The position numbers and the translations under genes are program-made. Below, piece after piece: positions 4,295 through 52,095 of a stretch of DNA of 64,000 nt. Under the pieces are notes generated by a model. The model saw only the letters and a program-made list of their open reading frames with translations. It was not told the origin of the DNA and made no database searches. The first letter of the stretch is position 1; every line of letters begins with the position of its first letter. Origin of the DNA: Sphagnum compactum (lineage: Eukaryota); the NCBI GenBank assembly GCA_965153455.1, contig OZ234493.1, positions 26,216,213 through 26,280,212 on the forward strand. The letters are read 5' to 3'.

Positions 4295-7200
4295 ATGGGA
4301 AATTCATATGGCCTCAAGGGAAAAGGAGTTGATCTTTCACAAGGGCCACCAAAAAGAAAGAGAGATGTTGGGCGGATCCCTGCTGCGACCGAGACACCTT
4401 CGGTCCCCGCTGAAAATCCTCCTTCAAGCTCTGGATGGCACAGCAATGTGATGCTTCTTCTTAATTTTATAATGAGCTTTCTTTGCACAGTTTTTTCTTG
4501 GGCTTTCCCATGGAAAGATGTTGTGCAGATACCTGCTGCGATTGAGACACCTTTGGTCCCTGCTGAAAATGCTCCTTCAAGCTTTGGAGGGCACGGCAAT
4601 GTGGTGCTTTTTCTTACTCTTATGATGAAGTTTCTTTGCACAATTTTTTCTTCGGCTTTCCCAAGTTACATGTTTAAGTTTGATTTTTCTTTGCTTTTTT
4701 AATTTTGTTTGGGTGTTGACAATTTTCCGTGACCCATACAACAACCATAGCTTATTGTCATGACAAAGCATCAAGAGAAGGAGGTCTAGTTCAGATTTGA
4801 ACTCCCAGCCAACAGCTTGGCAACCATACCCTTTAGCCACTAGGGTAACTGAATGTCCTCAATCATTTACAAGCTTCCTTGCCATACATTTTCACTTTGC
4901 CTACTTTCCAGTTTGTTTGTTTAGATAAAAACGATATGAAATGATGTTTTACACAGTAGGAAATGGAGTCATCATTATAGCCTCTTACATTAGGCCAGCG
5001 ACTCACTTGCTATAACAAGTAGGATCGGTGAAAGGGAAATTCGTCAATTGGCATTGACTAAGAATATATTGAACTTGTAAGGATTGGAACTTTCATTATA
5101 GATTATGAGTTAAGTTCAATGTGTAATCTTAATCCAACAACCAAAGGCAAATTATTAAACTGCTCTTGGACATTCTTATTGGGTTTGTGTCCCAATTCCT
5201 TAGGGGTCGGAGGCCTTAGTGGCCGAAATGTCGGGGAAAATGTCATGAAATACAAATGAACCAAACTAGATGGCTTAGTTAATCGACCCAAACTTGAAAG
5301 AATCCAATTCTGAGAATTAACCTTTATTGATGGACATATGTTCGATCTACTACGTAACAGTATTTACTTAATTGAACTATGTTTTGAAACTTTGACGCAT
5401 GTGAATGATCTTCATTTGTTAGTCCTGCAAGATACATTTGGCATTCTCCAATTCATCTATTATTGTCTTCTTGTTAGACTTAACATTTTCAATTAATTAT
5501 TTCTTTTATCTAACTACTATAATTTGTATATTGCATGTCTCCAATTTATTGTATAGTCAAATAATTTTCAAAAGATGTTTGAACAATTGTGTTGACTCTT
5601 TTTCATTTTCTTTGCAGAAATATGTAGTGCATGATTTAAATCCCACTTGTAATACCAATAATCCAAACTTGACCATCGTTTTTTTTCATGGGATTGCTTT
5701 TGGCACAAATGATGAATGGAAGGAAACATGGACAACATGCCCCACCAACAATAGAGAAGAGTGCATATGTTGGCCAGAAAAGTGGCTACCCGAAGACTTG
5801 AACAACAATGTTCGAATTTTATCATTGTCTTATGATTCTAAAATTGTGACAAGTGTTCACAATGATGTGATTGAAATTGGCAAAAACCTCATTCAAAGTT
5901 TGGTTACAAATTCAAGGTGTGACAATCTCTTCTATTTAAGGACACATTAATTACTTCTCCTTATGTATATTAAAGAAAATTGTTTAGATCTTTAGAATTT
6001 CTTAAATGTTGTGCAGGAGTTAATTGTTCATGTGTACTAGTATTGTGATACACACCAACAAGATTCAATTTATTTGAATTGTTAAATTCATGTAGGAGAA
6101 CATAAAATGGGGCTTATGTGCAAATGTTCTTGTTTGAAGATAATAACAAAGTCTATGTTCATATTATAAGTTCATGGTACAACTAGTTTGGTTTTGATGG
6201 CAAGTTTTAGGTCGAGCTTTTTGGAGTTTCATCTTTGGTAATGGAATTGAATTAAATTAAGTTCTATTAATACATGTGTAAAATTTGCATCCATTTCATT
6301 GCAAAAAAAAATTCCAAAAAGAATGTATCTTTTTTTTTTTAAAATTTTTTTTTGTTTTAACAATATTTCCAAGGTAACACAGAAGATGAATCGTGCATTA
6401 ACACAAGAATGTAAACGCCTACATACTTGAGCAATATAATTGTTTTACCAAAACATGGTTGTCACATTTTTTAGGTAAATTCATGGAATTGATAAATGAC
6501 AAATGACAAGCAAATCAATTACGGACTTATGGTTTAGGTCATGTGTGAATTGGAAAATTGTCCCCAAGTATAATAGGACAAATTTGTACATGTTAATACA
6601 ATGTTGATAATGGAATTTTATGCATTGTTGAATATTTTGTAGTTATCAATCGCTTTGGGATGGACCGGTGGCATTAATTGCTTATAGTTTTGGAGGTCTT
6701 ATACTCAAAAGCTTGGTGGTTGAAGCTCACAAACATGTACATCAAAGGTCAAAAAATACTTTGGATGATGAAGTCCACAAATGTTGTAAGACATTTTTGA
6801 ACAATGTGAAAGGTGTAATATTTTACGGTGTACCACATGTTGGCGGTACCCAATATTTATCAAATTATTTCATTTGGCAACATCAACAAATCAACACATT
6901 GAACAAGTGTGCAACCCAATCTGGTTTTTTAAAAAGTTTAAAATCTTTCAACCCACAAATGGAACACCTTTCAACAGATTTTAAAAATGCTATTCCTGAA
7001 GATGTCAACATTTATGCATTTGGTGAAGGATTACCACTCGACGAGAATTGGGTAAGATTTTCATTTCACCACATCGAAAGTTATCCAACTAAGTTCATTA
7101 ATTGAACATTTTTTGTATCGTCAAAATTTGTGTGGGATCATGTACTCAATACTTCTTAATACAATAATGTGGTGAATGGGTCATGTGTTTTATGAACTTT

Positions 7201-10200
7201 GTTTCATGAAATACTATTGATGGAAAGAAAATTTGATTGACTTCAAACATCATGAAATAGGTTTTAAATTTCGCCTTCATCAAATCAATTCCATACAAAT
7301 ATTTGTCATGAAAATCATATCATCATTAAAACATGTAAGATTAATGAGATCAAAAACCAATAACTTTGTGATTTGCTTGCCAAAAGGTTGAAGGAAATTA
7401 CTTTCACACAAAATATTTCATTGTTATTGAAACATCAATAGTTATTAAGCTATAGTTTCCACCACCATTTGGATTTACTGTGTTACTTATAAGTTCAAGC
7501 ATAGTTGAACAAACAAGTAAATGAGTTCCATTAACTTAATCTTTTGCTCATGCAGGGAATTTTAGTGCCATATGCCTCAGCTATTCAATTGTCAAACAAC
7601 AACCATTATAGAATCGAAGATGCTAATCATTTGACAATTTGCAAGCCACCAAACAAAAATCATCCAAGCTATTATTTATTGTTACAATGTTTGAGAATAT
7701 GTATGGAGGTAAAAACATCAAATCTAAGTCTTTTGACTTCATATATGTTCATGTTATTTTATACATTTTAGGTCATAGCACATTTGATGTGTATCGCATA
7801 TGCAATGTCATATATATTGATTATCAAATAAGAAAAATAACATATAAATGACCTTTGTTTTGTGAAATTTGACAGAAAAATATATTACTTCCACCTTTGC
7901 CATGTCATGAGGTGGCGTTGATTGATAAAGCAAAAGATATAAACATCTTGTTACAAAAGGAATCTATTGTTGGTTTGGTTGGAATGGGGGGAATTGGGAA
8001 AACCACTTTGAGCAAAAAATTCTATCATTTGTTCCACAACCAATATGACAAATCTAGTTTTTTGGAGGATGTGAATTCAAAGGACAATATCAATGATGTC
8101 ATAAAACAACTCCTACATGATTTGTGTGACAAAAAAATATCCAAGGATGAAAATGTGAACAAAGAAGACTTTGACAAAATTAGGCAATGTATGATATCAA
8201 AAAAAGTGTTAGTGGTGGTGGATGATGTTGGTAAAGTGGAGAACCTGTCCTTGCCAATTTTCATTGATAAGGCTGCTAGGAATGCAGCTTCTAAAAGTAG
8301 AATACTTGTGAATTGTCGAAATTGGCAAAATCTAAAATCTCACGTAAGTGAAGATGGAAAAATGATCATGAAATCTTTGGAGGAAGAGCAAGCAATGGAA
8401 CTTTTTATGTTCCATGCATTCGGTAATGCAAATCATGTTCCAACAAAATATTTCAAAGATATATGTAAGGAGATTATAAAAGCTTGTGGAGGGCTCCCTT
8501 TAAGTCTTAAAGTATTGGGTTCTTTTTTGTGCGATACTAAAGAATTGGAAATCTGGGAAGGCGCATTGAACAAATTGAAAAGTGGGCAAAGTTTCACGGG
8601 GGGCAATGATAATGAAAAACTTTGGAGTAAATTGAAGATATCTTATGAGTATTTGGATAAGGAACATCAAAGGATGTTTTTGGATATTGCTTGTTTCTTT
8701 GGTGGTTTGAAAATAAGGACAATTTGTCGAGCGTGGAATGGAGATTATTTACACCCAAAATTTGCATTGCAAAATTTACAACATAGATCTTTAATCCAAT
8801 GCGGAGAAGGTGGAATCTTGTACATACATGAACAATTACGAGACATGGGTCAAAATATTGCAATGGAACTTCCAATTATGAATCGATTTATATGGAAAGC
8901 AAATGAACCAAATTTTGTTTTACCAAACAATCAGGTTGTCACCATATTATTTCAATCTTATAATTTTATTTCGATTTTTTATGAATTTTTTTAATGTCCA
9001 AAAACAAATGTTTTAACTTTGAATCTTGATTTTATGAATAATGTTTTTTTAATAAAAATTAATAATAAGATGAAATGTTTTTTTTTATATTGATAATCCT
9101 TTTGTTTTCATTTCATGTGATAGGTGGTGGAAATTTTAGAAGGCATCTCATTGAAAAAATGTGTCAATTTGATTACATTGTCCCAAATCGGCTCCAAAGG
9201 ATTTCGTAACCTTAGGTTGGTTGACTTAACAGAAGCTTCACCAACTATTGTGGAAAATTGCATTCAAGGGCGAAATTTGAATAATGTTAAGTGGTTGTGC
9301 CTCAAAAATTGCATGATTCGAAAGTTGCCAAGTAATTTGTTTGATTGTTTACAATTACAAGTATTTGATTTGTCAGGGTGTTCCACCTTGAAAAAATTAC
9401 CTTCATCTATTGGCCGATTGAATACACTACAAGAGCTTGATTTGTCAAGGTGTTCCAATTTGAAGGAACTACCTTCATCTATTGGCCAATTGAATGCACT
9501 CCAAGAGCTCCATTTGTCAGGGTGGTCTAAGTTGAAAAAACTACCTTCATCTATTGGCCAATTGAATGCACTCCAAGGGCTTTATTTGTGGGGGTGTTCC
9601 AATTTGATAGAACTACCTTCATCTATTGGCCAATTGAATGCACTCAAAGAGCTTGATTTAAAAGGGTGTTCCAACTTGAAAGAACTACCTTCATCTATTG
9701 GCCAATTGAATGCACTCGAAAAGCTTGATTTAGAAAGGTGTTCGAACTTGAAAGAACTACCTTCATCTATTGGCCAATTGAATGCACTCCAAGAGCTTCA
9801 TTTGTGGGGGTGTTCCAATTTGAAAGAACTACCTTCATCTATTGGCCAATTGAATGCACTCCAAGAGCTTCATTTGTGGGGGTGTTCCAACTTGAAAGAA
9901 CTACCTTCATCTATTGGCCAATTGAATGCACTCCAAAAGCTTGATTTAGGAGGGTGTTTCAACTTGAAAGAACTACCTTCATCTATTGGCCAATTGAATG
10001 CACTCCAAAAGCTTTATTTAGGAGGGTGTTCCAACTTGAAAGAACTACCTTCATCTATTGGCCAGTTGAATGCACTTCAAAAGCTTTATTTGATAGGGTG
10101 TTCCAAGTTGAAAAAACTCCCTTCATCTATTGGCCAATTGAATGCACTTCAAAAGCTTGATTTAGAAGGGTGTTCCAACTTGAAAGAACTACCTTCATCT

Positions 10201-11103
10201 ATTGGTCAATTGAATGCACTCCAAGAGCTTCAGTTGTGGGGGTGTTCCAACTTGAAAGAACTACCTTCATCTATTGGCCAATTGAATGCACTCCAAGAGC
10301 TTTATTTAGAAGGGTGTTCCAACTTGAAAGAACTACCTTCATTTATTGGCCAATTGAATGCACTCCAAAAGCTTTATTTAGAAGGGTGTTCCAACTTGAA
10401 AGAACTACCTTCATCTATTGGCCAGTTGAATGCACTTCAAAAGCTTTATTTGGTAGGGTGTTCCAACTTGAAAGAACTACCTTCATCTATTGGCCAATTG
10501 AATGCACTCCAAGAGCTTTATTTAGAAGGGTGTTCCAACTTGAAAGAACTACCTTCATCTATTGGCCAATTGAATGCACTCAAAGAGCTTGATTTAAAAG
10601 GGTGTTCCAACTTGAAAGAACTACCTTCATCTATTGGCCAATTGAATGCACTCCAAAAGCTTGATTTAGAAAGGTGTTCGAACTTGAAAGAACTACCTTC
10701 ATCTATTGGCCAATTGAATGCACTCCAAGAGCTTCATTTGTGGGGGTGTTCCAACTTGAAAGAACTACCTTCATCTATTGGCCAATTGAATGCATTCCAA
10801 GAGCTTCATTTGTGGGGGTGTTCCAACTTGAAAGAACTACCTTCATCTATTGGCCAATTGAATGCACTCCAAAAGCTTTATTTAGATGGGTGTTCCAACT
10901 TGAAAGAACTACCTTCATCTATTGGCCAATTGAATGCACTCCAAAAGCTTTATTTAGATGGGTGTTCCAACTTGAAAGAACTACCTTCATCTATTGGCCA
11001 ATTGAATGCACTCGAAATGTTTGATGTAGAAGGGTGTTTCAACTTGAAAGAACTACCTTCATCTATTGGCCAATTGAATGCACTCCAAACGCTTAATTTG
11101 TAG
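4295..11103 (+). CDS. Alpha/beta-hydrolase-NB-ARC-LRR (HNL-type) NLR immune receptor, copy 1, ~1374 aa. Proposed exons: 4295-4447, 4529-4600, 5618-5916, 6643-7051, 7556-7708, 7876-8934, 9124-11103
   Basis: All joins are GT..AG and phase-consistent. SERAC1-like hydrolase motifs: VFFHG, WPEKWLPEDL..VRILSLSYDS, nucleophile elbow AYSFGG (Ser 6686), IFYGVPHVG, ANHLTICKP (His 7628). NB-ARC motifs: P-loop GMGGIGKTT, Walker B VVVDDV, CGGLPL, FLDIACFF, IHEQLRDMG. These are followed by 24 complete 24-aa LRRs. The first two exons are less certain; an alternative is a short MDICSIYY exon at 5330-5353. Confidence 0.9.
4363..4663 (+). repeat. 153-bp direct tandem duplication spanning the end of exon 1 and the start of the following intron of HNL copy 1
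   Basis: 4363-4510 aligns to 4516-4663 without gaps, encoding DVGRIPAATETPSVPAENPPSSSGWHSN vs DVVQIPAAIETPLVPAENAPSSFGGHGN. Confidence 0.9.
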
Positions 11104-11257
11104 GGGTGTTCCAACTTGAAAGAACTACCTTCATCTGCTGCTAATTGAATGCACTCCAAGAGCTTTATTGAAAAGGGTGTTCCAATTTGAAAGAACTACC
11201 TTCATCTATTGGCAATCAAATGCACTCCGAAAGCTTTATTTATGAAAGTGTTCCAAT
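9355..11257 (+). repeat. 72-bp coding tandem repeat (LRR array of HNL copy 1), ~27 units including 2-3 degenerate terminal units
   Basis: A near-invariant ~54-nt segment GGGTGTTCCAACTTGAAAGAACTACCTTCATCTATTGGCCAATTGAATGCACTC alternates with an ~18-nt variable segment. Confidence 0.97.
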
Positions 11258-14959: not shown

Positions 14960-15300
14960 AACTACCTTCATCTACTGGCCAATTGAATGCACTCTAGATC
15001 TTTACTTATAAGACTTCTCCAACTCGAGAGCGTCGTGAGAGAAATATTCATCTATTGGCAAATTGAATGCACTCAAAGTCCTTCATTTGTCAAGGTGTCC
15101 AATTTGAAATAACTATTTCAACTATTGGCCAATTGAGTACATTCCAAAAGCTTCATTTGTTAAGGTGTTCCAGTTTCAAAACATTATTTTCATCTATTGG
15201 TCATTGAATGCACTTAAAAATCTTGATTTGTGTGAATGTTTCAACTTGCAAGAATTACTTGCATGTACATTGGCAAATTAAATGCACTCCAAAAGTTTTA
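14960..15300 (+). pseudogene. Orphaned degenerate LRR units (~5) of the HNL family
   Basis: Repeated catcta(c/t)tggc(c/a)aatt(g/a)aatgcact... units with frameshifts and stops. They are more diverged than the coding arrays and are absent from the ORF track. Confidence 0.85.
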
Positions 15301-15960
15301 ATTGTTTTAAACAGTAGGAAATAGAGTCATCATTAGGCCAGCGACTCACTTGCTATAACAAGTAGAATCGGTGAAAGGGAAATTCGTCAATTGGCATTGA
15401 CTAAGAATATATTGAACTTGTAAGGATTGGAACCTTCATTATAGATTATGAGTTAAGTTCAATGTGTAATCTTAATCCAACAACCAAAGGCAAATTATTA
15501 AACTCCTCTTGGACATTCTTATTAGGTTTGTGTCCCAATTCCTTAGGGGTCGGAGGCCTTAGTGGCCGAAATGTCGGGGAAAATGTCATGAAATACAAAT
15601 GAACCAAACTAGATGGCTTAGTTAATCGACCCAAACTTGAAAGAATCCAATTCTGAGAATTAACCTTTATTGATGGACATATGTTCGACCTACTATGTAA
15701 CAGTATTTACTTAATTGAACTATGTTTTGAAACTTTGACGCATGTGAATGATCTTCATTTGTTAGTCATGCAAGATACATTTGGCATTCTCCAATTCATC
15801 TATTATTGTCTTCTTGTTAGACTTAACATTTTCAATTAATTATTTCTTTTATCTAACTACTATAATTTGTATATTGCATGTCTCCAATTTATTGTATAGT
15901 CAAATAATTTTCAAAAGATGTTTGAACAATTGTGTTGACTCTTTTTCATTTTCTTTGCAG

Positions 15961-18900
15961 AAATATGTAGTGCATGATTTAAATCCCACTTGTAATACCA
16001 ATAATCCAAACTTGACCATCGTTTTTTTTCATGGGATTGCTTTTGGCACAAATGATGAATGGAAGGAAACATGGACAACATGCCCCACCAACAATAGAGA
16101 AGAGTGCATATGTTGGCCAGAAAAGTGGCTACCCGAAGACTTGAACAACAATGTTCGAATTTTATCATTGTCTTATGATTCTAAAATTGTGACAAGTGTT
16201 CACAATGATGTGATTGAAATTGGCAAAAACCTCATTCAAAGTTTGGTTACAAATTCAAGGTGTGACAATCTCTTCTATTTAAGGACACATTAATTACTTC
16301 TCCTTATGTATATTAAAGAAAATTGTTTAGATCTTTAGAATTTCTTAAATGTTGTGCAGGAGTTAATTGTTCATGTGTACTAGTATTGTGATACACACCA
16401 ACAAGATTCAATTTATTTGAATTGTTAAATTCATGTAGGAGAACATAAAATGGGGCTTATGTGCAAATGTTCTTGTTTGAAGATAATAACAAAGTCTATG
16501 TTCATATTATAAGTTCATGGTACAACTAGTTTGGTTTTGATGGCAAGTTTTAGGTCGAGCTTTTTGGAGTTTTATCTTTGGTAATGGAATTCAATTAAAT
16601 TAAATTCTATTAATACTTGTGTAGAAAATTTGCATCCATTTCATTGCAAAAAAAATTTTCAAAAAGAATGTATCTTTTTTTTTTTTTTAAATTTCTTTTT
16701 GTTTCAACAATATTTCCAAGGTAACACAGAAGATGAATCGTGCATTAACACAAGAATGTAAACGCCTACATACTTGTACATTATAATTGTTTTACCAAAA
16801 CATGGTTGTCACATTTTTTAGGTAAATTAATGGAATTAATAAATGACAAATGACAAGCAAATCAATTACGAACTTATGGTTTAGGTCATGTGTGAATTGG
16901 AAAATTGTCCCCAAGTATAATAGGACAAATTTGTACATGTTAATACAATGTAGATAATGGAATTTTATGCATTGTTGAATATTTTGTAGTTATCAATCGC
17001 TTTGGGATGGACCGGTGGCATTAATTGCTTATAGTTTTGGAGGTCTTATACTCAAAAGCTTGGTGGTTGAAGCTCACAAACATGTACATCAAAGGTCAAA
17101 ATATAGTTTGGATGATGAAGTCCACAAATGTTGTAAGACATTTTTGAACAATGTTAAAGGTGTAATATTTTACGGTGTACCACATGTTGGCGATACCCAA
17201 TATTTATCAAATTATTTCATTTGGCAACATCAACAAATCAACACATTGAACAAGTGTGCAACCCAATCTGGTTTTTTAAAAAGCTTAAAATCTTTCAACC
17301 GACAAATGGAACACCTTTCAACAGATTTTAAAAATGTTATTCCTGAAGATGTCAACATTTATGCATTTGGTGAAGGATTACCACTCGACGAGAATTGGGT
17401 AAGATTTTCATTTCACCACATCGAAAGTTATCCAACTAAGTTCATTAATTGAACATTTTTTGTATCGTCAAAATTTGTGTGGGATCATGTACTCCATACT
17501 TCTTAATACAATAATGTGGTGAATGGGTCATGTGTTTTATGAACTTTGTTTCATGAAATATTATTGATGGAAAGAAAATTTGATTGACTTCAAACATCAT
17601 GAAATAGGTTTTAAATTTTCCCTTCATCAAATCAATTCCATACAAATATTTGTCGTGAAAATCATATCATGATTAAAACATGTAAGATTAATGAAATTAA
17701 AAGCCAATAACCTTGTGATTTGCTTGCCAAAGGGTTGAAGGAAATTACTTTCACACCAAATATTTCATTGTTATTCAAACATCAATAGTTATTAAGCTAT
17801 AGTTTCCACCACCATTTGGATTTACTGTGTTATTTATAAGTTCAAGCATAGTTGAACAAACAAGTCAATGAGTTCCATTAACTTAATCTTTTGCTCATGC
17901 AGGGAATTTTAGTGCCATATGCCTCAGCTATTCAATTGTCAAACAACAACCATTATAGAATCGAAGATGCTAATCACTTGACAATTTGCAAGCCACCAAA
18001 CAAAAATCATCCAAGCTATTATTTATTGTTACAATGTTTGAGAATATGTATGGAGGTAAAAAAATCAAATCTAAGTCTTTTGACTTCATATATGTTCATG
18101 TTATTTTATACATTTTAGGTCATAGCACACTTGATGTGTATCGCATATGTAATGTCATATATATTGGTTATCAAATAAAAAAGATAACATATAAATGACC
18201 TTTGTTTTGTGAAATTTGACAGAAAAATATATTACTTCCACCTTTGCCATGTCATGAGGTGGCGTTGATTGACAAAGCAAAAGATATAAACATCTTGTTA
18301 CAAAAGGAATCTATTGTTGGTTTGGTTGGAATGGGGGGAATTGGGAAAACCACTTTGAGCAAAAAATTCTATCATTTGTTCCACAACCAATATGACAAAT
18401 CTAGTTTTTTGGAGGATGTGAATTCAAAGGACAATATCAATGATGTCATAAAACAACTCCTACATGATTTGTGTGACAAAAAAATATCCAAGGATGAAAA
18501 TGTGAACAAAGAAGACTTTGACAAAATTAGGCAATGTATGATATCAAAGAAAGTGTTAGTGGTGGTGGATGATGTTGGTAAAGTGGAAAACCTTACGTCC
18601 TTGCCAATTTTCATTGATAAGGCTGCTAGGAATGCAGCTTCTAAAAGTAGAATACTTGTGAATTGTCGAAATTGGCAAAATCTAAAATCTCACGTAAGTG
18701 AAGATGGAAAATGATCATGAATTTTTTGGAGGAAGAGCAAGCAATGGAACTTTTTATGTTCCATGCATTCGGTAATGCAAATCATGTTCCAACAAAATAT
18801 TTCAAAGATATATGTAAGGAGATTATAAAAGCTTGTGGAGGGCTCCCTTTAAGTATTAAAGTATTGGGTTCTTTTTTGTGCGATACTAAAGAATTGGATA

Positions 18901-21900
18901 TCTGGGAAGGCGCATTGAACAAATTGAAAAGTGGGCAAAGTTTCACCGGGGGCAATGATAATGAAAAACTTTGGAGTAAATTGAAGATTTCTTATGAGTA
19001 TTTGGATAAGGAACATCAAAGCATGTTTTTGGATATTGCTTGTTTCTTTGGTGGTTTGAAAATAAGGACAATTTGTCGAGCGTGGAATGGAGATCATTTA
19101 CACCCAAAATTTGCATTGCAAAATTTACAACATAGATCTTTAATCCAAGGCAGAGAAGGTGGAATCTTGTACATACATGAACAATTACGAGACATGGGTC
19201 AAAATATTGCAATGGAACTTCCAATTATGAATCGATTTATATGGAAAGCAAATGAATCAAATTTCGTTTTACCAAACAATGAGGTTGTCACCATATTATT
19301 TCAATCTTATAATTTTATTTCGATTTCCTATGAATTTTTTTAATGTCCAAAAACAAATGTTTTAACTTTGAATCTTGATTTTATGAATAACGTTTTTCTA
19401 ATAAGAATTAATAATAAGATGAAATGTTTTTTTTATATTGATAATCCTTTTGTTTTCATTTCATGTGATAGGTGGTGGAAATTTTAAAAGGCATCTCATT
19501 GAAAAAATGTGTCAATTTGGCTACATTGTCCCAAATCGGCTCCAAGGGATTTCGCAACCTTAGGTTGGTTGACTTAACAGAAGCTTCACCAACTAATGTG
19601 GAAAATTGCATTCAAGGGCGAAATTTGAATAATGTTAAGTGGATGTGCCTCAAAAATTGCATGATTCGAAATTTGCCAAGTAATTTGTTTGATTGTTTAC
19701 AATTACAAGTATTTGATTTGTCAGGGTGTTCCACCTTGAAAAAATTACCTTCATCTATTGGCCGATTGAATGCACTGCAAGAGCTTGATTTGTCAAGGTG
19801 TTCTAATTTGAAGGAACTACCTTCATCTATTGGCCAATTGAATGCACTCCAAGAGCTTCATTTGTCAGGGTGGTCTAAGTTGAAAAAACTACCTTCATCT
19901 ATTGGCTAATTGAATGCACTCCAAGGGCTTTATTTGTGGGGGTGTTCCAATTTGAAAGAACTACCTTCATCTATTGGCCAATTGAATGCACTCGAAAAGC
20001 TTGATTTAGGAAGGTGTTCCAACTTGAAAGAACTACCTTCATCTATTGGCCAATTGAATGCACTCCAAAAGCTTTATTTGACAGGGTGTTCGAACTTGAA
20101 AGAACTACCTTCATCTATTGGCCAATTGAATGCACTCCAAGAGCTTTATTTAGAAGGGTGTTCCAACTTGAAAGAACTACCTTCATCTATTGGCCAATTG
20201 AATGCACTCCAAGAGCTGGATTTGTGGGGGTGTTCCAACGTGAAAGAACTACCTTCATCTATTGGCCAATTGAATGCACTCCAATGGCTTAATTTGGGCG
20301 GGTGTTCCAACTTGAAAGAACTACCTTCATCTATTGGCCAATTGAATGCACTCCAAGGGCTTTATTTGTGGGGGTGTTCCAATTTGAAAGAACTACCTTC
20401 ATCTATTGGCCAATTGAATGCACTCGAAAAGCTTGATTTGGGAAGGTGTTCCAACTTGAAAGATCTACCTTCATCTATTGGCCAATTGAATGCACTCGAA
20501 ATGTTTGATTTAAAAGGGTGTTCGAACTTGAGAGAACTACCTTCATCCATTGGCCAATTGAATGCACTCCAAAAGCTTTATTTGTGGGGGTGTTCAAATT
20601 TGAAAGAACTACCCTCATCTATGGGCCAATTGAATGCACTCCAAAAGCTTTATTTGATAGGGTGTTTGAATTTGAAAGAACTACCCTCATCTATTAGCCA
20701 ATTGAATGCACTGCAAGAGCTTCATTTAAAAGAGTGTTGCAACTTGAAAGAACTACCTTCATCTATTGGCCAATTGAATGCACTCGAAATGTTTGATTTA
20801 GAAGGGTGTTCCAACTTGAAAGAACTACCTTCATCTATTGGCCAATTGAATGCACTCCAAGAGCTTAATTTGTGCGGGTGTTCCAATTTGAAAGACCTAC
20901 CTTCATCTATTGGCCAATTGAATGCACTCGAAATGTTTGATTTAAAAGGGTGTTCCAACTTGAAAGAACTACCTTCATCTATTGGCCAATTGAATGCACT
21001 CGAAAAGCTTGATTTAGAAAGGTGTTTCAACTTGAAAGAACTACCTTCATCTATTGGCCAATTGAATGCACTCCAACAGCTTGATCTGTCGGGGTGTTGC
21101 AACTTGAAAGAACTACTTTCATCTATCGGCCAATTGAATGCACTTGAAAAGCTTGATTTAGGAAGGTGTTCCAACTTGAAAGAACTACCTTCATCTATTG
21201 GCCAATTGAATGCACTCGAAAAGCTTGATTTAAAAGGGTGTTCCAACTTGAAAGAACTACCTTCATCTATTGGCCAATTGAATGCACTCCAACAGCTTGA
21301 TTTGTCGGGGTGTTGCAACTTGAAAGAACTACCTTCATCTATTGGCCAATTGAATGCACTCCAAGAACTTGATTTGTGGGGGTGTTCCAATTTGAAAGAA
21401 CTACCTTCATCTATTGGCCAATTGAATGCACTCGAAATGTTTGATGTAGAAGGGTGTTTCAACTTGAAAGAACTACCTTCATCTATTGGCCAATTGAATG
21501 CACTCCAAGAGCTTAATTTGTGCGGGTGTTCCAACTTGAAAAAACTACCTTCATCTATTGGCCAATTGAATGCACTCCAAGGGTTTTATTTGTGGGGGTG
21601 TTCCAATTTGAAAGAACTACCTTCATCTATTGGCTAATTGAATGCACTTCAAGAGCTTTATTTAAAAGGGTGTTAAAACTTGAAAGAACTACCTTCATCT
21701 ATTGGCCAATTGAATGCACTCGAAAAGCTTGATTTAGGAAGGTGTTCCAACTTGAAAGAACTACCTTTATCTATTGGCCAATTGAATGCACTCGAAGAGC
21801 TTGATTTAGAAGGGTGTTCGAACTTGAAAGAACTACCTTCATCTATTGGCCAATTGAATGCATTCCAAGAGCTTGATTTAAAAGGGTGTTCGAACTTGAA

Positions 21901-22181
21901 AGAACTACCTTCATCTATTGGCCAATTGAATGCACTCCAAGAGCTTTATTTAAAAGGGTGTTGCAACTTGAAAGAATTACCTTCATCTATTGCCAATTGA
22001 ATGCACTCCAAGAGCTTTATTTGTGAGAATGTTCCAACTTGAAAGAATTACCTTCATCTATTGGCCAATTGAATGCACTCCAAGAGCTTTATTTAGAAGG
22101 GTGTTCGAACTTGAAAGAATTACCTTCATCTATTGACAATCAAATGCACTCCGAAAACTTTATTTATGAAAGTGTTCCAAT
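15961..22181 (+). pseudogene. HNL copy 2, 5'-truncated and disrupted. Exon homologs: 15961-16259, 16990-17398, 17903-18055, 18223-19283, 19472-~22181
   Basis: It has the same splice sites as copy 1. A 1-bp loss in an A-run (18708-18711) gives TGA at 18712-18714 within NB-ARC. In-frame TAA codons occur at 19907-19909, 21635-21637 and 21674-21676, and there is a frameshift near 21993. There is no homolog of the 4295-4600 exons. Confidence 0.85.
19703..22181 (+). repeat. 72-bp LRR tandem array of HNL copy 2, ~35 units
   Basis: It has the same constant segment as copy 1 but a different series of variable segments. Confidence 0.97.
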
Positions 22182-24516
22182 TTACTATATTGGTATATAG
22201 TCGTTGTAGCCCTATGCATTTTTCCTTTCGTGGGTATCAAATCCAAATCATAATTACTAAACTTCTATGTTGTTCAACATGAGATAATTGTTGAAACTTC
22301 TAGGGTCATTTATTTTCACTACATTTGGAGTTGTATTTCCTAACAAACCTCCAAATAGGATCCTTGGTCCTAAATTGTGTTAAACACATTGCCTTCAATT
22401 TGTTGATCCATTCATACTTTTTAGCCCATGTTGTACACAATGAATTGGATGTGGTATACCCTTGATGTGGTATACCATTGTCACAAAGACTCATAGGAAA
22501 ATGGTCTATTCTTTGCTTTTCCAAAATTCGTATGTTAATATCAAATTGACTTTTCACAAAATATGTTTCTAATTCAAAATTTACAATCTAGAAAAGGAAA
22601 GCAAATAATTTCAAAAGTCAAAACATTCATTAAACAAAAGAAAATTTTGTTACACCTTTTTGTGCCATAAGAAGGTTCCAATCCTTTGTCTTTAATGAAC
22701 ACAATTAAGGATCATAAGTTTTTCCCACAAACATTTTGTAAGTATGTTGGAGGAGATCTAAGAACTCATATATAAAATTTTAGAAAAATTAGGTCACAAC
22801 ACTTTGAAATACTTAAAATGAGGATGATTATGGTCATAACCTTGCAAGTGTGGTTCACAAAATGGTAGATCATTGTTTTCATCACAAAAAACTGTTAAAA
22901 ACTACTTAATTGCAAAAATGTTTAAATTTTTTAACTCAATTGCATGTTCAAATCATGATTGCTTTGTGTTTATTTCTTTGTTGACTTTTTGGGATTCTTT
23001 TCACCTTTTTTTAGTAGGTTGAGGGTTCAAAATACAATTTGAAAGATGTAAACTAACTTTGATGTAAAATTCAGTTTTATTCAAAACACAAGTATGATAG
23101 GTCGAATGTGTACACTTGATACCTTGTGTTGGAAATTGAACCATGTTGAGATCTTGAAGGCTCCTAGTTTTAATGTTTCAAAATGTTTAATTTCAACACA
23201 CTTTCATATGTGTGCAGGCTTAGGATAATGAGTGAAGGGAAAAAACAAAATAAATGTGCATAGTTGGGTGTGCAAGCTTTGGTCGGTGGGCAAATGGAAA
23301 CCTCCATTGAAACTTTTTAAAATTAAGTCCCCAAAGGAGTATAAATATAGATAGGACCTTCATTATTTTTAATTTGTCAACAATAGTTTGAGGTATAATC
23401 TTGTCCCATAGCCTTGTTATGTTCCTTTTGTGTTTATGTTTTCATGTTTTATCACAATAAAGTTTTGTTTACACACTTCATGTTCTTAGTTTTAATTTTA
23501 AATATGATTTTAAAAAAAACATAATCTTTTGTGTTTAAATTTATACTTATGTTTGTCTTTTCATCACTCATAATTTTTGTGCATGTGCACAACAATTGCA
23601 TTTGATGCTTATGTTAACTCTATCTAGTAACCTTAATAATAAAGATCCATTATTTAAATAATATTTAATTCTTATTTGTATTACATTGAGGAGCTCCACT
23701 TTCAATGCAAAAAATTTGACTTTAGATGATCAAGATTTGCATCTTAATTTTAAAATAATTACAAATTATTTTTATCATGGGCATTTGATGTTAAGGACAT
23801 CTCCATGAATTGGGTTGGTATCAAATTTTATTACATCCACCATAGAGATATTAAATGTTGGTTAAATGTTCTCACACCCCACCCATAAACATGATTTTTA
23901 AACAATATTTTATTGAAACACCATTTAAATGTCAACACCTAAGCCAATCATTGTAATCGACCAATTACAGGTAATCATTTTGATGATACCACCCTAGATA
24001 AAAATATATTATCATGTGCAAAAATGTAATGCCATAGTCAATTTTCACATTATTGTATTGTTATTCCTCATCCATTTTAATGATACAATCCATCAATGAA
24101 GACATCTTAATAGAAAAAAATAGAAACTACACCATGAACTTGTGAAGATGATGTTAATGGAAAGACAAATGTACCTCCTTTTACTAATTGTTCCTAAAGC
24201 TCAATGGGGGAGGGGATGGGGGGTTGTTTTGTGCATAAAAGAATAAGTTGATTATCAAGCATGACACCTAATTTTCCACATGTAAAGCATCATCTTTTTT
24301 TTTCATTTGTATATTTTGATCCCTCACCAAATTGAAAAAATCATGTTTACTAATGTCGTAATGATGCTAAATAAATAATAATTTACACAATCTGAAAGGT
24401 ACTTTCTAGTTTGTCAAAATAATTTTTATCGAATGAAATTACCCACCAACTTGTCCTTTCTATGTCACATTGTCCTTTTGCAATGTCACTGTCATGATGA
24501 TGCTTTATATAGGAGA

Positions 24517-49310: not shown

Positions 49311-52095
49311 TTAACCTACATGAACCCACTGGGCCTGGCTTGGAATGCCATTTGACACAGCAAATAGCATGTAATAAGCTGAAGGTGCAATCACAGAACT
49401 CGGTGGCGCTGTAGTAGCCACTGTATATGTACCCCCTCCCGCAGCAGCTGGGGCTGCAGTCTCAAGCTGTAACAGCCTTTGCCCCTGCACAAAAACACCA
49501 ATTTCCAATTAACAAGAATGGATTTGTACAAGCATTGATCAGCCCAAGGACGATCTCGATGCAGTATCAGGAGACCTAGAGCTTTTTGAAGACCATGATG
49601 GAAACTTTGCAAGAAAAATTTCACGTAACATGAGACTCAATGGGATTTAGTGAACTTAGGGTGCAGGATCTTCTCTGCAGATGTGTAGAAGATCAGTACC
49701 TGGGAGAAGGAGTGAGTCGAATACGGAGCGCTGAGCAGATTCAAATCAATAAATTTGGGGTTACCATTGTTGATTGTGGCTGTGAAGGCTGCACCATAGG
49801 CCAATTCTCCCGGAGCGTTGGCGATCGCCGGCCCAGCACCGCCGAGGTAAGGTGGTGAGAATCTCTCGATTCTCAACTCCGTTGGCAGATATCCAGTCAA
49901 AGTGTAGAATTGGTGTGTGTTACTGCCGGCAACCAGCACACTGGCATCGGGCAAGACGTTAGCGGTAGAGTGGTACACGCGAGGAATGTCGGTCCCCGTC
50001 AAGGTTTGGAAGCGAGCACCGGCGGCGCCATTGGGATTGTATAACACTGGTGTTGTCACGGGGTTCTGCGCATTTCCCCATCCTTGTGCACCATTGGCAG
50101 CTCCGTTGAGGATGAGCACGTTGCGGTCAGGTAAGAGCAACATGTCGCCCATGTTGCGTCTCATGGGCATGTTCTCAAGCGCCCAGCCCGGATTCGCGTC
50201 CAGAGGTGCAATTCGTCCGCATGATTGAGTCGCGGGGATGGCAGCTCCAGGGTTGAGGAATGCACCGTACGTGGCTCCGCCACAAACGAGAACCTCTGGA
50301 CCTGTCCAGCCGTTGAACCCGGACAACGGCAGCAGGACCGAGCTCCCGGCGGACGGATAATTTCTCGGCCCACCTTGTAAGGTAGGGAGGTTGGCGGCGA
50401 CGGTGTTAGTTTGCCAGTCGTAGAGAATGGAATCCTGATTAGCAAAGATGAAGAGCTGGTTGTTGGGCAGCAAATGCACGTAAGGGTACAAGTTGTCGTT
50501 TTGAGCATCGTTTGCCTGCAGTCAGCCACACCCCCATGAATATATGAACAATTACACAATCAATTCATTGTGAATACTCATCAGTATCTTAACTTTTGTG
50601 ATTATATCTTATGGATATTTCGCCGTAGGCTTTCATAACTAGCCTCGGATGTTCGAATGTATTCAAGAAACTTCAGGAAAAACAGGGGTACTTACTGAGA
50701 CGAATCTCTCAATTGCAGAAACGAGGAACAGGAGTTCAAGAGGAATGTGCGGGATCAGAGAGTGCTAGAGATTATTACATTTGCAATTAGAGGAATATAA
50801 GTGGTGCCTCGGCCGTTCGCTGGCACATACTCCACGGTCGCAATACCGCGTCCACCGACGACGGCTTGGGTACCGTCCGGCAGTTGTGCGTTGGTGGCGT
50901 ACCACCGTCCGTTCTGCAATGGGACGTCGGTCTCTACCCAGTTGCAATCACCATCTCCTCCGCATGGAGCGAATGTTCTAATCTGCAGGCGCGGATGCAA
51001 CACAAGCACGAATTGGCAGACCTTCACAGTGAACAAAACTGTTCTCGGGACCAATTCATGGCCCTGTAATTCGCATGGGTTGCTGAAGGATGTCTAGTGC
51101 AAGAATTTCAAGGCTAGAATCTCGGATTATTACAAATTTTCTTCTTTAAGCCACAGTGAGTCTTGATCTTATTTCTTGATTGAAGCAACGAATATTCCCT
51201 AGTGAAGCCTATAGAGAGAAAATCGGAGATCAGACAGGGAGGGAGCTCCCTCGAGTCTCCAGCTCGCTACTCAACAATTGAATTTTTTAAATATATGTTA
51301 CCTTGGAAAATCCATCGTTGTCTCCACCGGTCTGCACGAGTGTGCCGTCGCCATTGAACTGTCCCGAGGAGCACCAGGTGTCGGTTTGAACGAAAAGAGG
51401 CCTAATAGTGTTGGTACCAAGGTCGAGGACAGCAGAGTGAGCTGTGCAGTCGTGTGTGGAGCTCTGCTTTCATGACAAACGAGACACATCCAGACATTTT
51501 CGGGAAGTTAGAATTGTCTTAGTCTCAAGCTGATATTTATATGAGATCCGATCGTTGATCAGTCGCTTATAATTCCAATTACTGAACCTTGAAATTAGGA
51601 CTGACTGCACAACCCAGATGGACTAAATCAGAGAAAGAATGTGTAGCTAGCTATGTGTGTTATTCCAGCTGCAGCCCAATAGGGATAAAATACAAGTTCC
51701 AGCTACAGCTTCTTCCGAACTCGCCCGGCAAGTTTTGCTTAGGAACATCTGAATCTTACTCAACGGAAGCTTTCAGAATCAATGATCACCTCGTCATTGG
51801 GATCGTTGCGACAAACTCCATCCGGTAAGTTAAGCTGCGAAGGTCCAATGTCCGTCCTGTCCAACAACACAGCAGTATTGTAATGGGTAACCGCGGTGTG
51901 CATAGACGCAATGCCCGCATTGTTGACAATAACCTCCCATCCTCCTTGTGCCGCCACTTGCATCATCAGACTCGACATCAACGCCGCGAGCTGAAACACC
52001 AAGAACAGCGTGAAGCTGCGGAGCAGCGCTGTAGAGCTCCTTCTCGAATGATTACCCATCGACATCTCTTTGACAACCGTGTCCATATTCATCAC
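49311..52095 (-). CDS. GLOX: Secreted glyoxal oxidase / galactose-oxidase-like copper radical oxidase (CAZy AA5-type). Exons: 52095-51790, 51463-51302, 50982-50779, 50515-49700, 49484-49311
   Basis: A hydrophobic signal-like segment is followed by WEVIVNNAGIASMH. Catalytic motifs are TDTWCSSG (Cys), GRWYA (Tyr), PRVYHS (Tyr/His) and STHSFSQGQRL (His). The C-terminal Ig-like domain contains APSAYYMLF. Introns are phase-0 GT..AG. Which upstream ATG is used is uncertain. Confidence 0.92.

Follow-up and report, generated by a model that had tools for sequence, protein, structure and literature searches.

Among the NOD-like receptors (NLRs) of fungi are proteins with WD40, ankyrin (ANK) or tetratricopeptide (TPR) domains composed of repeats that are 80–100% identical to one another, that differ at a few hypervariable surface positions, and that vary in number and are reshuffled (PMC4986451; PMC13449251). 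Unequal crossing-over has been proposed for these genes, pseudogene copies of them exist, and positive selection at the variable positions has been reported (PMC4986451; PMC13449251); the parts of PMC4986451 drawn on here give no leucine-rich repeat (LRR) among fungal NLRs. This article describes an arrangement of this kind made of LRRs in a peat moss, Sphagnum compactum. The window, that is the whole stretch of DNA analysed, comprises 64,000 nucleotides (assembly GCA_965153455.1, contig OZ234493.1, positions 26,216,213 to 26,280,212 of the forward strand; all coordinates below are those of the window) and contains an NLR gene, here gene 1, whose last exon carries an array of 72-nt units (array 1), together with a tandem duplicate, gene 2, that carries a second array (array 2). 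With a probability of roughly 0.78, the region of array 1 is read as the LRR exon of an expressed peat-moss NLR gene, formed by an array of high internal conservation in which units turn over and variation lies on the residues of the beta-strand.

A 2026 survey of ANK, TPR, WD40 and LRR proteins across life places such NLRs also in animals, plants and bacteria, the plant occurrence being put only in general terms in section 12 of the survey (PMC13449251). Bryophyte NLRs of the hydrolase type are known as HNL (Xue et al., 2012; PMC3352924) and Hyd-NLR (Chia et al., 2024; PMC11218826), and Sphagnum hydrolase-NLRs are mentioned in the latter paper; the portions of both papers used here focus on N-terminal domains and phylogeny and not on the internal conservation of LRR arrays. 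In rice, alleles of Xa1/Xo1 are reported to carry near-identical central tandem repeats whose number differs between alleles (10.1101/675678; PMC7748011). A search of the literature, supplements not covered, found no description of these Sphagnum LRR arrays.

Gene 1 resembles the HET-E/HET-D and NWD family of Podospora in its NOD-plus-repeats design, near-identical units, unit-number variation, reshuffling and pseudogene copies, and differs in that its repeat is an LRR, its host is a land plant and there is no context of repeat-induced point mutation. With HNL and Hyd-NLR it may share an alpha/beta-hydrolase-like N-terminus before NB-ARC and LRR, suggested by a below-threshold match in gene 1 and by PF05057 in several relatives. 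Xa1/Xo1 is likewise a plant NLR with near-identical tandem units, although its N-terminus is a BED domain and its host an angiosperm; the Xa1 unit is about 93 residues long and present in few copies, whereas the Sphagnum units are single 24-residue LRRs in 24 to more than 60 copies. Among proteins of solved structure, the best sequence relatives across NB-ARC, winged helix and LRR are Roq1 and RPP1, both angiosperm TIR-NLRs (E 2e-93 and 4e-72), and the WHD_ROQ1 and RPS4B-like LRR Pfam families also match gene 1; unlike them, gene 1 has no detected TIR or C-JID and ends within its array, and the repeats of the seed-plant proteins are degenerate.

Gene 1: structure, expression and domains

4295–11103, plus strand: gene 1, encoding a hydrolase-like N-terminus, NB-ARC and LRR (from RNA joints, open frame and Pfam)
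4295–4603, 5618–5916, 6643–7051, 7556–7708, 7876–8934 and 9124–11103, plus strand: the exons of gene 1, with five GT..AG joints
7876–8934, plus strand: NB-ARC and winged-helix exon of gene 1 (Pfam; best solved relatives Roq1, 7jlv, and RPP1, 7crb)

The five GT..AG joints are each covered by 10–37 reads in polyA RNA run X22, which bears the same species label, and the joined exons give a frame open for 1402 codons from the ATG at 4295 to the TAG at 11101. Array 1 lies in the last exon of this spliced, expressed gene. Read depth in the same run is about 60–97 over exons, about 1–3 over introns and 23–56 over the array. The public gene model P0002 agrees with the RNA-based gene except for one residue at the first junction and 263 residues that it splices out: it treats 9379–10167 as an intron, where the RNA has no GT..AG joint and the depth is like that of the rest of the array; the annotated intron is probably spurious and owed to the repeat. 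Non-canonical RNA joints within the array (9415>10124, 9 reads with a 21-nt side; 10225>11187, 6 reads) were taken as reads from paralogues and rejected as introns.

Pfam assigns NB-ARC (PF00931) with E 6.8e-35 and a score of 121 bits (cut-off 23.5), and the P-loop motif GMGGIGKTT is present in the translation; WHD_ROQ1 (the Roq1-type winged helix) and LRR_14 (PF23598, E 2e-151) are also matched. At the N-terminus the sole Pfam match is DUF676 (serine esterase) on residues 169–290 of P0002, at 18.6 bits and E 0.0014, below the cut-off of 20.3, and no N-terminal match was obtained when single exon open reading frames (ORFs) were used. PF05057 is precomputed on the relatives P0011, P0060, P0062 and P0120, and the gene 1 translation holds a nucleophile-elbow-like AYSFGG. 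A Pfam scan of P0002 that admitted E values up to 1 gave neither TIR nor the post-LRR domain C-JID, and the frame ends inside the array, so that gene 1 does not show the TIR plus C-JID combination of a TIR-NLR. The closest named match of the NB-ARC ORF is a 1138-residue Sphagnum compactum protein at 99% identity; dozens of relatives at 60–87% identity occur in six other Sphagnum species, and below these come seed-plant TIR-NLRs and Ceratodon (moss) proteins.

Exon 1 contains an in-frame 153-bp tandem duplication at 4363–4663 (2.0 copies, 86% matches) that doubles a Pro/Ser-rich stretch before the hydrolase-like domain; it is also present in the public models P0002 and P0007, the latter from another species.

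Anatomy of the repeat unit

9355–11082, plus strand: array 1, 24 in-frame 72-nt units, each one 24-residue LRR with the consensus LQELDLEGCSNLKELPSSIGQLNA; the LRR-domain coding part of gene 1
11083–11257, plus strand: tail of array 1, consisting of unit 25 with TAG at 11101–11103 (unit position 7), then about 2.4 decayed units with 1-nt deletions
19703–21934, plus strand: array 2, 31 units in register, with in-frame TAA at 19907–19909, 21635–21637 and 21674–21676

Tandem Repeats Finder places the 72-nt array at 9375–11256 (26.2 copies, 90% matches). An earlier, sequence-only reading of this DNA had set the start at 9355, which is exactly the first clean unit in the frame of the long ORF 9124–11103, and all of the variable motifs that it listed (QELHLWG, EMFDVEG and others) are found in the arrays. 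ORFs that cross the arrays on the reverse strand or in other frames were discounted as a side effect of a stop-free repeat.

Variation is concentrated in one part of the unit in both arrays and is not uniform along it. The first 33 nucleotides, 45.8% of the unit length, hold 85.6% of the nucleotide diversity in array 1 and 85.5% in array 2, a share reached by 0 and 1, respectively, of 100,000 site shuffles. Segregating sites in array 1 number 21 of 33 in nt 1–33 and 10 of 39 in nt 34–72, 8 of the latter 10 being singletons. At the amino-acid level the entropy maxima fall at codon 7 (2.67 bits, 8 residues), codon 5 (1.72 bits) and codon 3 (1.62 bits), followed by codons 2 and 8, with a smaller peak at codons 10–11. 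Nucleotide 13 bears all four bases at appreciable frequency (GAT 27, TAT 17, CAT 7, AAT 3). Codons 12–24 are near-invariant, synonymous sites included, and at codons 12, 16, 17, 19, 22 and 23 all 24 units of array 1 use a single codon. The sequence-only reading had divided the unit into a hypervariable 18-nt segment and an invariant 54-nt scaffold; a strong division into variable and constant parts is borne out, and that split is approximate, the variable part being codons 1–8 plus codons 10–11 (nt 1–24 and 28–33) and the near-invariant part codon 9 plus codons 12–24 (about 39–42 nt).

High internal conservation of repeats has been defined as more than 85% identity over at least 100 residues (Dyrka 2014) or as repeats 80–100% identical (PMC13449251). 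The best 120-residue window of P0002 at period 24 has a self-identity of 0.91, which places it in this class. Over the whole of array 1, mean pairwise identity is 0.90 at the nucleotide level (0.899) and 0.83 at the amino-acid level, with 0.855 for adjacent units, so that by whole-array amino-acid identity it is borderline under the stricter definition of more than 85%. Its nucleotide identity makes array 1 the most uniform of the 55 arrays compared. The resemblance to the repeats of fungal NLRs that the sequence-only reading had proposed holds on these measures (PMC4986451; PMC13449251).

Predicted structure of the LRR domain

AlphaFold2 was run without an alignment on the 659-residue LRR exon, in which unit n starts at residue 78 + 24(n-1). 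The model is a regular solenoid (predicted local distance difference test score, pLDDT, 90.0; predicted template modelling score, pTM, 0.83) in which each unit contributes one 5-residue strand at positions 3–7 and a short helix at positions 17–21. The nearest solved folds by Foldseek are LRR solenoids, namely Leptospira LIC11098, SHOC2 and plant receptor ectodomains, which together with PF23598 and the model identify the C-terminal part of gene 1 as an LRR solenoid. When the variable sites are mapped onto the prediction, the x residues of LxxLxLxx fall in the beta-strand, as the sequence-only reading had anticipated: the entropy peaks at positions 3, 5, 7 and 8 lie in or beside the predicted strand, so that a few hypervariable positions are placed on the putative binding surface, and positions 3, 5 and 7 alternate in the strand with core Leu 4 and Leu 6. 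In LRR proteins, strand residues that alternate with the core leucines face the concave side, and by this geometry positions 3, 5 and 7 of the model would lie on the concave face.

Gene 2, a tandem duplicate

15331–19702, plus strand: body of gene 2, a pseudogene copy of 4988–9354 with 81 substitutions in 4365 aligned bases (1.86%)
15047–15231, plus strand: decayed LRR-unit fragment just upstream of the gene 2 copy (15331), period 70, 2.6 copies, 76% matches

The segment 4988–11258 is duplicated at 15331–22200, and the introns of the two genes differ by 2.2–3.1%. The copy begins inside intron 1 and therefore lacks exon 1; its NB-ARC exon has a 1-nt deletion at the position matching 8358 of gene 1; and its array carries three in-frame stops. 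Gene 2 is a pseudogene. The sequence-only reading had recognised neither this nor the moss origin of the DNA, nor that the N-terminus is hydrolase-like and not of an angiosperm type. Tandem Repeats Finder gives array 2 as 19713–22180 (34.3 copies, 88% matches), and from 21935 to about 22200 it consists of decayed, frameshifted units. The decayed end of array 1 is also present in gene 2, and the decay is therefore older than the duplication. The fragment at 15047–15231 could be what is left of an earlier array that stood at the edge of the duplication.

One exon interval is identical in the two genes, with 0 differences in 321 bases between 5620–5940 and 15963–16283, while the neighbouring introns differ by 1.1–2.8%; recent conversion between the paralogues may account for this, or chance. 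Seven of 18 listed alternative letters in reads match gene 2, five of them in RNA. At the exon sites 6759, 6808, 7926, 8640 and 9173 the gene 2 letter is carried by about 30–70% of RNA reads, and the gene 2 pseudogene, or another very close copy, seems to be transcribed.

The family in Sphagnum and other plants

Metagenome contigs were scanned with the NB-ARC ORF, giving 80 loci at 75–87% identity (L001–L080), of which 67 bear 72-nt arrays of up to 64 units that often reach the end of the contig. Units were called at no more than 9 mismatches in 39 to the scaffold consensus of the window, a rule that favours conserved scaffolds, and gaps of two units within arrays are rare. Of the in-register family units, 1527 of 1701 are stop-free and have the same variability profile as the window arrays; the same profile is shown by 302 units from 29 Sphagnum proteins. 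Metagenome assemblies of repeats can contain errors, and the unit and stop counts of the family are therefore indicative. Independent assemblies agree closely in two cases: L027 and L028 carry identical arrays of 33 units, and 5 bases separate the 36-unit array of L005 from that of L007.

Divergence was measured in the 36 of 81 arrays (the 80 loci plus array 1) whose NB-ARC segment is intact and that have 10 or more in-frame units; comparisons between arrays used a sample of no more than 12 units from each. The median proportion of synonymous differences (pS) in NB-ARC between loci is 0.188; for the scaffold it is 0.123 within and 0.137 between arrays, and for the variable segment 0.33 within and 0.36 between. 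Array 1 has the lowest proportion of nonsynonymous differences (pN) in the scaffold of all 36.

Many related arrays run on beyond a stop codon: in 34 of 61, at least 25% of units follow the first in-frame stop, with L005 and L007, L027 and L028, L031 and L038 as examples among the related loci. The position of that stop differs between near-identical loci (15 units in L005, 24 in L007), and the C-terminus of the protein appears to be set by the earliest nonsense or frameshift change in the array.

The sequence-only reading had set the uniformity of these repeats against the degenerate LRRs of angiosperm NLRs, a contrast that the comparison across plants upholds. The best 120-residue self-identity at a period of 20–30 has a median of 0.75 and a maximum of 0.93 among 78 Sphagnum proteins, 42 of which reach at least 0.7; it is 0.37–0.55 in six Ceratodon proteins, and has a median of 0.20 and does not exceed 0.29 in 31 seed-plant relatives.

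Turnover of units

The bodies of genes 1 and 2 differ by 1.86%, yet the interiors of their arrays, with 24 and 31 units, are non-colinear; only units 1–4 (1, 2, 2 and 1 differences) and a late unit, LEMFDVEG, are colinear between them. Within array 1, a 334-nt block at 9609–9942 recurs 936 nt, or 13 units, downstream with 3 mismatches. Of the units of array 1, 71% find their nearest counterpart in array 1 itself and not among about 1600 units elsewhere, and modules (the variable segments of units) are more alike inside one array than across the two. Loci that are near-identical but come from different samples are whole units apart (56 in L003, 57 in L004), and L003 and L009 differ by several unit gaps, so that repeat-number polymorphism and reshuffling between paralogues are seen both in the window and among related loci. 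A scaffold variant, S17P, is present in 71–83% of units in three family arrays; array-wide private variants were found in just 6 of 55 arrays. The arrays evolve by duplication and reshuffling of units on a conserved scaffold.

Whether the reshuffled segments form a set of standard parts is a separate matter. The 55 units of the window contain 34 distinct 8-residue modules, of which 8 are common to both arrays, and 41 nucleotide modules, of which 6 recur among the 1701 family units compared with 2.9 ± 1.3 in codon-shuffled pools. These counts speak against the small alphabet of interchangeable modules that the sequence-only reading had envisaged. Scaffold variants recur more widely, 11 of 20, covering 46 of the 55 units, being found in other loci. 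The x positions 2, 3, 5 and 7 are statistically associated (z about 4–5), and partial haplotypes such as LEMFD and LEKLDL.R therefore exist; every combination of the common residues at positions 3, 5 and 7 is also present.

Evolution of the variable and conserved segments

Within the window arrays, rates were estimated by the Nei–Gojobori method, with positions 2, 3, 5, 7 and 8 taken as x sites. These give pN 0.28–0.32, pS 0.19–0.22 and a ratio of nonsynonymous to synonymous divergence (dN/dS) of 1.6–1.7 on only 2.4 synonymous sites. The ratio is 0.13–0.17 at the core Leu codons and 0.1–0.2 at codons 9–11, and the scaffold codons 12–24 have pS 0.04–0.05 and pN about 0.02. In the scaffold, dN/dS is 0.37 in the array of gene 1 and 0.64 in the pseudogene array. 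Distinct x-site variants number 23 nonsynonymous to 3 synonymous, which is not different from neutral (P = 0.38), and single-step links between modules at x codons number 10 to 0 against an expected 5.25 to 1, which is not significant.

The family permits a comparison of recently separated units, defined as mutual-nearest pairs within arrays after nine near-identical duplicate loci and arrays of fewer than 8 units had been dropped. The 127 coding pairs show, per 100 sites per pair, 5.83 differences at x codons, 3.67 in the rest of nt 1–33 and 2.44 in the scaffold; the corresponding figures for 90 pairs beyond the first stop are 5.56, 4.01 and 3.28. Nonsynonymous and synonymous changes in the coding pairs stand at 77:15 for x codons, where about 5.25:1 is expected under neutrality, and at 64:52 for the scaffold. 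Between the colinear orthologous arrays of L003 and L009 (NB-ARC pS 0.053) there are 28, 20 and 42 differences in nt 1–24, 25–33 and 34–72, a spread that is about even once the lengths of the three parts are considered. These comparisons indicate that x-site change runs close to the neutral rate and that the scaffold is under constraint. Entropy does cluster at the x codons, as the sequence-only reading had held; the excess of dN/dS over 1 is not significant, recent pairs are about neutral and change as fast where units are untranslated, so that its claim of diversifying selection at these sites is not supported. For the fungal NLRs, positive selection has been reported.

The reading favoured here, that of an expressed NLR gene whose LRR exon turns over by whole units and varies on its strand residues, has several observations to contend with. 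Nonsynonymous divergence at the x sites is 6–7 times the synonymous divergence of the scaffold, and plain recent duplication with neutral x sites is therefore insufficient. Between a module (nt 1–24) and its nearest match in the other array there are, at the median, 2 differences, though the flanks differ by 1.86%. An additional process is needed: either the x sites change faster or homogenisation is restricted to the scaffold, and both fit and are not separated by these data. Variants in nt 1–33 are mostly of intermediate frequency and those of the scaffold mostly singletons (Fisher P = 0.018 and 0.012). The higher synonymous diversity of codons 1–11 in the window is statistically weak and due mainly to two sites, L6 TTG/TTA and N11 AAC/AAT (Mann–Whitney P = 0.12 and 0.063). 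In addition, RNA and DNA short reads matched at 97% identity may include reads from paralogues, the unit count of array 1 is that of the assembly, and the assignment of the hydrolase domain depends on a Pfam match below threshold.

Homogenisation of the scaffold alone offers a possible, tentatively entertained account of the whole pattern. Tracts of conversion or crossover would be bounded within the 39–48 nt of identical scaffold and stopped by mismatches in the variable segment through heteroduplex rejection, and the variable segments would keep an older neutral divergence with no selection for diversity. Mismatched heteroduplex is rejected in recombination, and among recent pairs x-site change looks neutral and is as fast in coding units as in untranslated ones, as this account would have it. 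Synonymous diversity in the window arrays is 0.28–0.39 in codons 1–11 and 0.04–0.05 in codons 12–24, and that of the variable segment exceeds that of the scaffold in 36 of 36 family arrays. The recurrence of window scaffold variants in other loci also fits. However, the synonymous evidence of the window is carried by few sites, and variable segments of great age predict that most modules should be common to two arrays whose flanks differ by 1.86%, whereas only 8 of 34 are. A search for duplication breakpoints in the scaffold gave one long internal block per array, with ends set by single mismatches; the only block duplication found has an end inside a variable segment, which is contrary to this account, although breakpoints defined by single mismatches, one of them in the variable segment, are uninformative. 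Across the family, the scaffold pS within arrays is only slightly below that between arrays and shows no correlation with NB-ARC divergence (r = -0.18), which does not separate the models.

Less likely still is the full explanation that the sequence-only reading had proposed, in which concerted evolution of the scaffold, diversifying selection on the x codons and a small set of interchangeable modules make up a combinatorial receptor code. The excess of x-site divergence over that of the scaffold, the local dN/dS above 1, the uniformly nonsynonymous single-step links, the four bases at nt 13, the association among x positions with its partial haplotypes and the high synonymous diversity of variable segments throughout the family would all suit it. 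Against this, neither the variant counts nor the links depart significantly from neutrality, recent coding pairs show about the neutral proportion of changes and the rate of untranslated units, L003 and L009 differ evenly along the unit, modules are numerous, with few common to both arrays and only 6 of 41 recurring in the family, and one of the two arrays lies in a pseudogene. What finds support in that evolutionary reading is the duplication and reshuffling of units on a conserved scaffold, rather than diversifying selection or a small modular code.

That the array arose through an error of assembly, or as a satellite-like expansion in a decaying gene without receptor function, is highly improbable: it would accord with the pseudogene state of the paralogue, with the many family arrays that continue past a stop and with the public model that splices out part of the array, but gene 1 is open over its 1402 codons, spliced and transcribed across the whole array, its scaffold is more constrained than that of the pseudogene, independent assemblies of related arrays agree, and Hi-C depth, weak evidence from about 2% of a run that is shallow and may include paralogous reads, is about 5–15 over the array and about 2–9 over the flanks, at most about a twofold difference that suggests no large collapse. 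Logan contigs of DNA runs X1 and X3 gave pieces of about 100–170 nt, none spanning the array.

Elsewhere in the window, an unrelated neighbouring gene is marked by an ORF on the minus strand at 49637–50518 with a glyoxal oxidase N-terminal domain (PF07250, E 5.5e-32), and Pfam searches of seven other window ORFs gave nothing beyond that domain.

Implications

If the favoured reading is correct, the array would grow and be reshuffled by gain and loss of whole units and blocks of units, presumably by recombination, with long identical stretches giving rise to unequal crossing-over or replication slippage. Purifying selection, together with the short time since the duplications, would hold constant the residues that would build the solenoid: the core leucines, Cys 9 of the unit and the LKELPSSIGQLNA segment, which includes a short helix. 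The outward strand residues (2, 3, 5, 7 and 8) would be free to change and therefore hold nearly all of the differences, and each repeat would thereby acquire its own patch of a concave, presumably ligand-binding, surface. Gene 1 itself presumably acts in immunity, and its concave face, as modelled, may be where ligand is bound.

More speculative, and improbable on present evidence, is the idea that the hydrolase-type NLRs of Sphagnum run a system of germline diversity generation, in which the 39–48-nt scaffold would be a recombination handle and the beta-strand segments the cargo, swapped among units, tandem paralogues, pseudogenes and untranslated units beyond the stop. The trailing post-stop units might then form a silent reserve, by analogy with the cassette diversification of fungi and jawless vertebrates. 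If true, variation in receptors at the level of the lineage would arise far faster than by point mutation in a clonal, haploid-dominant moss.

Most work on NLRs with near-identical repeats has dealt with fungi, and the arrays described here represent a land-plant family of them at scale, each gene having between 24 and more than 60 units of one LRR, arrays being present in 67 of 80 related loci, and restructuring occurring between copies whose flanks are less than 2% different. Automatic gene models can wrongly splice out such arrays. Since each unit is a single LRR with 4–5 exposed positions, the family amounts to a natural experiment on the composition of an LRR surface, and it offers a tractable case in which to ask whether the reshuffling of repeats, rather than point mutation, makes new recognition surfaces in plants.

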